A DNA stretch of 64,000 nucleotides. It comes from an uncultured bacterium (GTDB lineage: Bacteria; Patescibacteriota; Minisyncoccia; Phycocordibacterales; CAIZLB01). Below the pieces are notes generated by a model. The model searched no databases. It was not told the DNA's origin and saw only the letters and a list, made by a program, of their open reading frames with translations. The position numbers and the translations under genes were made by a program. Of the stretch, positions 11,986-12,822 are shown in pieces (the first letter of the stretch is position 1; each line of letters starts with the position of its first letter). The stretch is from NCBI GenBank assembly GCA_903821355.1, contig CAIJKW010000018.1, positions 1,453 through 65,452 of the forward strand. The letters are read 5' to 3'.

Positions 11986-12822
11986 ATGATAGAAAATAGT
12001 ACAGAAAGCAACAAAAGGGTCGTCGGCATAGATTTTGGTTCAAAAAGGATTGGTATTGCTGTGTCTGATGAATTAGGCTCATTAGCTTTTCCTCTTACAA
12101 CCGTCGTAGGCTTTGGCCACGATACAGAGAAAAAGGAATCAAAAAAAGAGCAGGCGGAACAAGAAATTATGGAAATTTTAAAAGACAAAGATGTCAAGAT
12201 CGTCATAATTGGACATTCCGTCAATTTAAAAGGTGAAGATAATGCCATAATGGAGGATGCTAAGTGTTTGGGTAATAAATTAGAATCGAACGGCTTTAAT
12301 GTCATTTATGAGCCGGAAATGTTTTCCACAGTCCAGGCCAGAAGGTTTCAAACTGAGAACAAGCAGGTTGATGCTTCAGCGGCGGCAATTATTTTACAAA
12401 GTTATTTAGATAGAGTTAAATTTAAAAACATGAATATACAAACAGAGTTAGACAACAATAAGGAAGCAGGTAATAAAGAAGCTGAGGTTGAAAAAAGTTA
12501 CATAACAATAGATGATTTTATAAAAGTTGAAATAAGGATAGGTCAAATTTTGAGTGCAGAAAGAATTGAAGGATCTGATAAGTTATTAAAACTAGCTGTT
12601 GATTTTGGCGAAGAGTCTCCAAGGCAGGTTCTTTCTGGAATTGCAAAGCTTGTCGAAATGGAGGAAATTGTTGGAAAAAAGTTTCCCTTCGTAACAAATC
12701 TTGCCCCAAGAAAAATGATGGGTATGGAAAGTCAGGCTATGATACTGGCCGGAAGTTTTGGTGATGATCTTGCTCTGTTAAATCCTAGCAAAGACTTACC
12801 TAATGGCACAAAACTAAAATAA
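11986..12822 (+). CDS. Fusion protein: RuvX/YqgF-like putative Holliday junction resolvase (N-terminal) plus Myf/EMAP/CsaA-type tRNA-binding domain (C-terminal)
   Basis: N-terminus [17 protein letters not shown] (YqgF/RuvX signature); C-terminus [34 protein letters not shown]...QVLSGIAKL matches the OB-fold tRNA-binding domain of MetRS C-terminus/Trbp111/CsaA. Confidence 0.65.
   Translation: [278 protein letters not shown]

Follow-up and report, generated by a model that had tools for sequence, protein, structure and literature searches.

Why would a nuclease of the RuvX/YqgF family be made as one polypeptide with a tRNA-binding domain? The question is raised by a gene at positions 11986..12822 (+) of a 64,000-nucleotide stretch of contig CAIJKW010000018.1 (hereafter the window), which derives from an uncultured bacterium of the Patescibacteriota, within the Paceibacteria. 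RuvX/YqgF is near-universal and is essential in several bacteria, Deinococcus radiodurans among them, and its role is disputed between that of a Holliday-junction resolvase, a nuclease for pre-16S rRNA, a transcription factor and a general flap nuclease. A first-pass annotation, made from the letters alone, had read the gene as RuvX fused to a tRNA-binding domain of the Myf/EMAP type, had called the fusion uncommon and had taken it to support RNA processing rather than a role at Holliday junctions. We confirm that the fused open reading frame (ORF) is real and that both of its domain matches lie far beyond chance. The gene unites known families in a new domain architecture, although the proteins themselves are already present in public databases under partial names, and in the searchable literature we found no paper that joins YqgF/RuvX with Trbp111, a tRNA-binding domain, PF01588 or Patescibacteria.

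Results

Architecture of the fused protein

Positions 11986..12822 (+) form one ORF that starts with ATG, runs for 278 codons and ends with TAA, with no internal stop under translation table 11 and no separate start and stop that would split it into two genes; the fusion proposed in the first-pass annotation is thus contained in a single frame. An identical protein (P0001) is found on a public contig of 66,196 bp. Domain searches bore out the assignment of both halves: RuvX (PF03652) matches amino acids (aa) 11-142 with an E value of 9e-25 and 88 bits (Pfam cutoff 29.2), and tRNA_bind (PF01588) matches aa 183-276 with an E value of 2e-26 and 92.3 bits (cutoff 27). The NCBIfam models RNAse_H_YqgF (TIGR00250; 58.5 bits against a cutoff of 43.25) and metG_C_term (TIGR00399, an equivalog-domain model; 126.4 bits against 116.65) are likewise exceeded. 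Among PDB sequences, Aquifex Trbp111 (1pyb/8vtz) matches best, with an E value of about 1e-30 and 54% identity over 108 aa, and the N-terminal half matches the YqgF proteins of Bacillus subtilis (2e-7) and Escherichia coli (8e-6).

The complete gene can accordingly be partitioned into three parts. The RuvX/YqgF nuclease domain with its RNase H fold lies at 12016..12417 (+; aa 11-144, by the envelope of a hidden Markov model (HMM) match), and the oligonucleotide-binding (OB) domain, of the type found in Trbp111 and at the C-terminus of methionyl-tRNA synthetase (MetRS), lies at 12493..12819 (+; aa 170-278, including the elements that form the dimer in Trbp111). Between them runs a linker of about 25 aa at 12418..12492 (+; aa 145-169) that is rich in K, E and N. 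In the fused proteins as a group, both the length and the sequence of the linker are hypervariable; where it could be measured cleanly, it spans 8-47 aa (median 16 aa), and K, E, N and Q are abundant in it. The nuclease domain further carries a charged, K/E-rich insertion of 16 aa at 12109..12156 (+; about aa 42-57), located between beta3 and alpha1, which in alignment A1 is confined to the window protein and its clade (P0003-P0017) and is absent from 16 other fused proteins. The insertion is also absent from relatives in which the two halves are encoded separately.

An AlphaFold2 monomer model built on a 24-sequence alignment has a mean predicted local distance difference test score (pLDDT) of 84 and a predicted template modelling score (pTM) of 0.50, and consists of two confident domains. 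Over most of aa 11-110, the pLDDT of the RuvX domain is mostly above 90; a long helix (aa 128-158) exits from this domain, and the pLDDT of the linker falls below 50 at aa 154-156 and 158-167. In Foldseek comparisons, the OB half matches structures of Trbp111, the MetRS C-terminal domain and CsaA with target template modelling (TM) scores of 0.86-0.93 (0.86-0.88 for Trbp111 itself), and the RuvX half matches the YqgF structures 7ess, 1nu0, 1vhx and 7w89 with target TM scores of 0.67-0.79, as befits an RNase H-like fold. The best matches to the whole model are PDB entries 7d8r and 7d8s, engineered fusions of the MITF leucine zipper to Trbp111, in which Trbp111 serves as a dimerising tag placed after a long helix, a layout that recurs in aa 128-278 of the window protein.

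How does this protein relate to the families from which it is built? Over its N-terminal 134 aa it exceeds the cutoffs of the RuvX/YqgF family, shows the RNase H-like fold and carries the three carboxylates typical of that family. Characterised members are stand-alone proteins of about 130-170 aa, whereas the window protein has 278 aa and a C-terminal OB domain, and its clade alone has the charged insertion; the two-domain length is an architectural variant that still falls within the RuvX/YqgF domain family. A YqgF-type RNase H-like domain and an OB-fold nucleic-acid-binding domain also share one polypeptide in Tex/Spt6 (PMC3985635). Tex, however, lacks the third carboxylate, is a large multidomain protein and has an OB domain of the S1 rather than the Trbp/EMAPII type, and membership in the Tex/Spt6 YqgF-like family (PF16921) was rejected at 14.7 bits against a cutoff of 27 (E 0.041).

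The C-terminal half belongs to the Trbp111/MetRS-C branch of PF01588. It aligns with residues 3-110 of the 111 in Aquifex aeolicus Trbp111 (MetRS beta; 1pyb, 8vtz) at 54% identity and keeps K33, P74, R75, S82 and M85. Because the alignment spans residues 3-110, including the termini that form the dimer, the OB domain of the window protein is expected to dimerise. Trbp111 is a free-standing dimer, whereas the OB domain described here is covalently joined to a nuclease and has methionine in place of F78, which stacks on C75. Like the C-terminal domain of bacterial and archaeal MetRS, it exceeds the TIGR00399 cutoff and forms the C-terminal end of an enzyme, to which it is linked by a connector with helical and disordered stretches; here, however, the host enzyme is RuvX. 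The EMAP part of the earlier assignment did not survive this comparison: the domain lacks the pseudo-dimer extension of EMAPII, Arc1p and AIMP1 and ends at the equivalent of Trbp111 residue 110, and of the 164-174 residues in the structures of EMAPII and Arc1p, only about 100 can be aligned with it (target TM 0.54-0.59). A CsaA/YgjH-type domain (TIGR02222, NF0074xx) was rejected as well, the best scores being 66 bits against 171 and 50.6 against 119.65. Ten other long tRNA_bind proteins comprised six MetRS fragments, one fusion to shikimate kinase and three with tRNA_bind alone, and no second nuclease partner was found among them.

Conservation of both modules

If either half were a relic, its functional residues should have drifted. 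We examined 143 homologues, 85 fused and 58 split into two genes, and mapped the Trbp111 equivalents by alignment to the Trbp111 PDB sequence. Conserved YqgF carboxylates are an aspartate in beta1, a glutamate at the C terminus of beta5 and an aspartate in alpha3 (PMC9601230, PMC3985635); in D. radiodurans YqgF, RNase activity is impaired by D22A and abolished by E106A and D122A (PMC9601230). The equivalents in the window protein are D16 in beta1, within the motif G-I-D-F-G (codon 12031..12033, +; D22), E111 at the end of beta5, within E-P-E (12316..12318, +; E106), and D129 in alpha3 (12370..12372, +; D122). Each of the three is invariant in 143 of 143 homologues, and from these intact carboxylates the RuvX domain is predicted to be an active nuclease.

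For the OB domain, a co-crystal of Trbp111 with tRNA (2024), which revised the textbook view of the domain, provides the reference: only the 3'-terminal CA is bound, not the elbow or body of the tRNA, with A76 in a pocket of R75, I77, S82 and M85, and C75 contacted by K33 and F78 (PMC11286949). A76 is the key contact, and internal or 3'-extended CA is rejected (PMC11286949). K199 (12580..12582, +) corresponds to K33, whose replacement by alanine weakens tRNA binding by Trbp111; the position holds K in 138 homologues, R in four and a gap in one. The equivalents of R75, I77, F78, S82 and M85 are R242, M244, M245, S249 and M252, in the segment 12709..12741 (+). Arginine is found at R242 in 139 homologues and lysine in the other four, S249 and M252 are invariant (143/143), and M244 is replaced only by I or L; the equivalent of P74 is also kept in the window protein. 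At M245, the homologues have M, K or R, with phenylalanine in just two of the 143. The A76 pocket thus appears intact in the window OB domain, and the stacking contact to C75 appears altered. Since the nuclease triad, S249 and M252 are invariant and K199 and R242 nearly so, in fused and split proteins alike, neither module is decaying.

Frequency and origin of the fusion

A search of 5.8 billion protein clusters recovered about 70 clusters at 90% identity that hold both Pfam domains in one polypeptide, ranging from 100% to about 40% identity to the query. When HMMER was run over 1.84 billion representatives at 50% identity, about 20 covered both halves, and stand-alone RuvX or tRNA_bind proteins numbered in the thousands. 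The fused form is genuine, recurrent and rare. 'Uncommon' was therefore an apt description of the fusion, and needs to be amended for the gene pair, which recurs across those related Paceibacteria loci that we examined.

This became apparent when one genome per GTDB species was scanned and the best 80 loci were kept, the flanks of related contigs were examined, and stop-to-stop ORFs of the 80 loci were searched with HMMs made from each half of the alignment. Both halves were present in 60 loci, a sample that is biased towards pairs by its ranking on similarity to the fused query. Only two of these (L012, L014) have a single fused ORF. In 36, a separate trbp gene in a different frame comes directly after ruvX; in a further nine the two are adjacent in the same frame with one TAA or TAG between them, and in six with several stops between them. 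The genes lie 600-740 nt apart in four loci, and trbp is nearby on the other strand in three. A separate trbp thus directly follows ruvX in 51 of the 60 loci, and the two are contiguous, fusions included, in 53. In nine loci from outside the Candidate Phyla Radiation (CPR), among them Aquificales, Chloroflexia, Bacillota and Acidimicrobiia, ruvX stands alone.

Are the split genes truly separate, or might they be read as one protein? All of the 51 adjacent pairs except L003 have an in-frame ATG where the trbp domain match begins or shortly before it, and many of the different-frame pairs have ATGA or other short overlaps; a check of the ORFs gave a 4-nt ATGA overlap in L031, a 4-nt gap in L013 and a fusion in L012. 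The share of adjacent pairs in the same frame (15/51) is that expected by chance, for which reason programmed readthrough is unsupported. Together with stops that are TAA, TAG or TGA and a trbp gene that has its own ATG (except in L003), this led us to reject both readthrough and an alternative genetic code in the split relatives.

The junction itself records how the window fusion came about. In the Taylorbacteria locus L013, ruvX ends ...TTTAAAAACAACATATAA (FKNNI*), and trbp begins four bases later with ATG AGT GAA. In the DNA alignment, the TAA of L013 lines up with CAA (Q152; 12439..12441, +) in the window, the codon at which ruvX once ended, and what used to be spacer and start region is now translated as linker. 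As judged from this alignment, the window fusion arose by loss of the ruvX stop codon in front of an adjoining trbp gene, and the ancestral state is a gene pair and not a fusion. The neighbour-joining tree of the concatenated domains (85 fused and 58 split proteins, 234 columns, without support values) places the window's clade next to split L013, and elsewhere in it further fused clades neighbour split loci of their own (P0045 with L025, a 30-member clade with L004). Parsimony on this tree gives a split root and about 20 changes, a rough figure given the method, the number of columns and the lack of support values; several independent fusions are nevertheless clear.

Might the fusion instead be an artefact, in which a frameshift, an assembly error or the wrong genetic code has joined two genes in the window contig? 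That most related genomes have two genes at the equivalent position would be in keeping with such an error. However, the ORF is unbroken under table 11, 85 fused sequences are known overall, 19 independent clusters from other samples share the architecture and the junction KFKNMN(I/T)Q at 65-82% identity, and the difference from the split relative is a clean change of TAA to CAA. A frameshift or assembly artefact was accordingly rejected, and we consider an error of any of these kinds to be hardly conceivable.

Three codons before the former ruvX stop lies an in-frame ATG, M149 (12430..12432, +; KFKN-M-N), which is conserved in the window's clade. In principle, translation could also begin internally at this codon and yield a free Trbp-like product; the preceding sequence contains nothing that resembles a Shine-Dalgarno motif.

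Genomic context

The MetRS of the window is encoded at 42182..43708 (+; 508 aa, PF09334), 29 kb from the fused gene, and lacks PF01588; the domain was not found either in the 120 best MetRS homologues (54-88% identity, 380-509 aa, Paceibacteria). In the lineage of the window, the MetRS C-terminal domain is consequently encoded beside or within ruvX, and the fused protein is not a part of MetRS.

On its upstream side the fused gene is flanked by an SDR gene, tRNA-Ser(TGA), a conserved membrane protein and genes for S20, RuvA (4 kb away), Fpg and a SpoU methylase, and on its downstream side by a PilM-like gene and two small ORFs that carry no annotation. The first-pass annotation had placed the gene just after tRNA-Ser. 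The tRNA is indeed the neighbour, 133 nt upstream, but it is divergent, being encoded on the opposite strand at 11765..11852 (-; ARAGORN and Rfam). Its CCA is not encoded, the discriminator being followed by CAATAC. Of 43 related loci scanned, 39 have this tRNA upstream of ruvX, often within 150 nt, on the minus strand in most and on the plus strand in about ten; in L017, a plus-strand tRNA-Ser(TGA) ends 14 nt before the ruvX ORF. A functional link does not follow from this proximity, because the tRNA is on the opposite strand, its orientation varies and the whole block is syntenic.

Clustering of neighbours in 71 CPR loci recovered the PilM-like protein in 57, the upstream membrane protein in 33, RluD in 29, RuvA in 20 and L19 in 19. 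The gene after trbp varies, with DedA inserted in about one third of loci. A block of about 12 kb (~5700..18500) is syntenic across Paceibacteria at 35-80% protein identity, in the order SpoU methylase, Fpg, RuvA, S20, bPH protein, membrane protein, tRNA-Ser, ruvX(-trbp), in some loci DedA, PilM with two small ORFs, tRNA-Arg, RluD-like and L19; tRNA-Arg(GCG), tRNA-Arg(TCT), tRNA-Val(TAC) and tRNA-Leu(GAG) hold their positions in the same block. Neighbour clustering and tRNA scans having revealed this synteny, we no longer treat conserved adjacency as proof of a functional link.

Among the individual neighbours, the predicted membrane protein (10443..10925, -; 160 aa) has no Pfam match, and its homologues (cluster 3) lie on the opposite strand upstream of ruvX in the 33 loci. 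The two small ORFs that follow the PilM-like gene (14013..14564, +, 183 aa; 14567..15136, +, 189 aa) have no Pfam match and may be divergent analogues of PilN and PilO. In 43 related loci, this region encodes a conserved family of about 190 aa, to which either ORF may belong. tRNA-Leu(GAG) at 18558..18642 (+) was called by ARAGORN and lies below the Rfam gathering score for tRNA. In a scan for promoters and terminators around the fused gene, counts did not exceed those of shuffled controls, the sole terminator-like site (11702-11722) following the upstream SDR gene, and an Rfam scan of the window returned tRNAs alone, with neither RNase P RNA nor any other structured RNA near the gene.

Discussion

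How might a 3'-end clamp serve RuvX? We tentatively favour a scenario in which an active RuvX nuclease is tethered to a dimerising 3'-CA clamp that brings CCA-ended RNA, chiefly tRNA, to the nuclease for the processing or surveillance of tRNA or its precursors. By homology, the OB domain would dimerise and so produce a two-headed protein. The OB dimer would capture single-stranded 3'-(C)A ends, of which mature tRNA is presumably by far the most abundant source, and tethering would raise the local concentration of CCA-ended RNA at the two flexibly attached RuvX domains, much as the same OB domain concentrates tRNA for MetRS in other bacteria. D. radiodurans YqgF is a 5'-to-3' exo- and endonuclease on RNA, and E. 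coli YqgF processes pre-16S rRNA in 70S ribosomes (PMC9601230). A nuclease of this type would thereby be placed at the acceptor end of the tRNA, and action at the acceptor end of tRNAs or tRNA-containing precursors is predicted because the 5' end of a tRNA adjoins its 3' tail and YqgF is a 5'-to-3' nuclease. Such a protein would then be likely to process or survey either tRNA itself or precursor transcripts to which tRNA is linked. Most Paceibacteria would encode these two partners in separate, often overlapping and presumably co-expressed genes. Dimerisation, 3'-CA binding, the RNA substrate and the cooperation of the modules are all steps that we infer.

Several observations weigh against this scenario. 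Where stop and start codons overlap, genes are easily fused by a chance mutation, no confident contact between the domains is predicted by AlphaFold2 (pTM 0.50), and the F78 contact to C75 has been exchanged for M, K or R. Trbp111 binds DNA 3' tails equally well (PMC11286949), which leaves the preference of the first-pass annotation for RNA processing over Holliday junctions plausible at best, the more so as Trbp111 is also a stable dimeriser; the OB domain could just as well act on DNA or in dimerisation. In seven CPR loci ruvX and trbp lie apart, and in 11 others there is no trbp within 6 kb of ruvX. Because the whole block is syntenic, adjacency of the pair says less about a functional link than it would in most bacteria. 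The OB domain has, moreover, been joined to an unrelated partner elsewhere, namely in P0268 (283 aa), in which a shikimate kinase (PF01202, aa 17-170) is followed by a C-terminal tRNA_bind domain (aa 188-280).

Some of these observations lend themselves to a more prosaic account, in which RuvX and Trbp have independent jobs and were joined as overlapping neighbours in a streamlined genome, as a neutral or convenient fusion. RuvX would then act in the processing of rRNA or other nucleic acids, and Trbp would be a free chaperone of tRNA 3' ends or a trans-acting cofactor of aminoacyl-tRNA synthetases such as MetRS, replacing the missing C-terminal domain of the latter, with a long flexible linker leaving the modules independent. 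Synteny of the whole block makes this a serious rival, since it extends beyond the pair to genes such as pilM for which no link is conceivable. With ATGA overlaps and 4-nt gaps, one substitution or indel suffices for fusion; the linkers are disordered and hypervariable; the shikimate kinase fusion suggests that the OB domain tolerates unrelated partners; the metG_C_term score, in a genome whose MetRS lacks the domain, fits a trans-acting helper of MetRS; and same-frame pairs at chance frequency indicate a junction without special design. Neutrality sits less well with the retention of fused forms, fully constrained in both modules, across several large and old clades at 40-80% identity, with the 1:1 stoichiometry and RuvX dimerisation that fusion would force and that are expected to matter, or with a ruvX-trbp pair that is contiguous in 53 of 60 loci, biased towards pairs as these are, while the next gene downstream varies. 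On sequence evidence, a functional link between RuvX and Trbp is unproven, and we judge the neutral account to be nearly as likely as the tethered nuclease that we favour.

The OB domain might alternatively act on DNA, as a dimeriser and a clamp for DNA 3' tails that yields a two-headed RuvX for Holliday junctions, flaps or forks, alongside RuvA. The Trbp111 dimer is unusually stable and has been proposed and used as an artificial dimerising tag (PMC11286949), of which the MITF-Trbp111 fusions among the top Foldseek matches are an instance, and RuvA is encoded 4 kb upstream. As for the nuclease, the YqgF proteins of Mycobacterium tuberculosis and Helicobacter pylori have been reported to resolve Holliday junctions, the former with a dimeric structure (MtYqgF, 7ess), and Mycobacterium smegmatis RuvX cleaves flaps and overhangs. 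Yet neither the M. smegmatis protein nor YqgF of D. radiodurans, whose gene is essential, has Holliday-junction resolvase activity (PMC9601230 for the latter). Furthermore, most relatives make the OB protein as a polypeptide of its own, which cannot dimerise RuvX covalently, and the invariant residues for recognition of a 3'-terminal adenine are not required by dimerisation alone. We therefore regard a role on DNA as improbable.

It is conceivable, albeit unlikely, that RuvX and the Trbp111-like protein of Paceibacteria constitute one unit throughout, covalent here and non-covalent or co-translated elsewhere, which recognises the CCA tail of tRNA and cleaves at the adjacent 5' end or close to it, and hence represents an unrecognised nuclease for the processing or surveillance of tRNA or tRNA-linked precursors. 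If so, this unit would give the first indication from genomes of the class of physiological substrates on which RuvX/YqgF acts.

Current names obscure the architecture. Fused proteins appear at NCBI as 'methionine--tRNA ligase subunit beta' or 'Holliday junction resolvase RuvX, partial [archaeon]' and at JGI as 'putative transcription antitermination factor YqgF' (P0011, P0387, P0388, P0004, P0008 and P0014); each name misses one domain, and one gives the wrong taxon. The first of these names is incomplete because the host enzyme is RuvX and MetRS lacks the domain. In Paceibacteria, the MetRS C-terminal domain is located beside ruvX or fused with it and not on MetRS. The misannotation of the fused proteins is systematic.

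Should the fusion prove neutral, it would still offer a clean, datable case in which loss of a stop codon has fused two genes in streamlined genomes. For RuvX itself, its recurrent coupling, within one bacterial class, to a domain with no known ligand other than the 3'-CA tail of mature tRNA, as a gene pair and by repeated fusion, provides a hypothesis that is cheap to pursue in vitro, and the fused protein is a natural construct with which to test the disputed function of this family.

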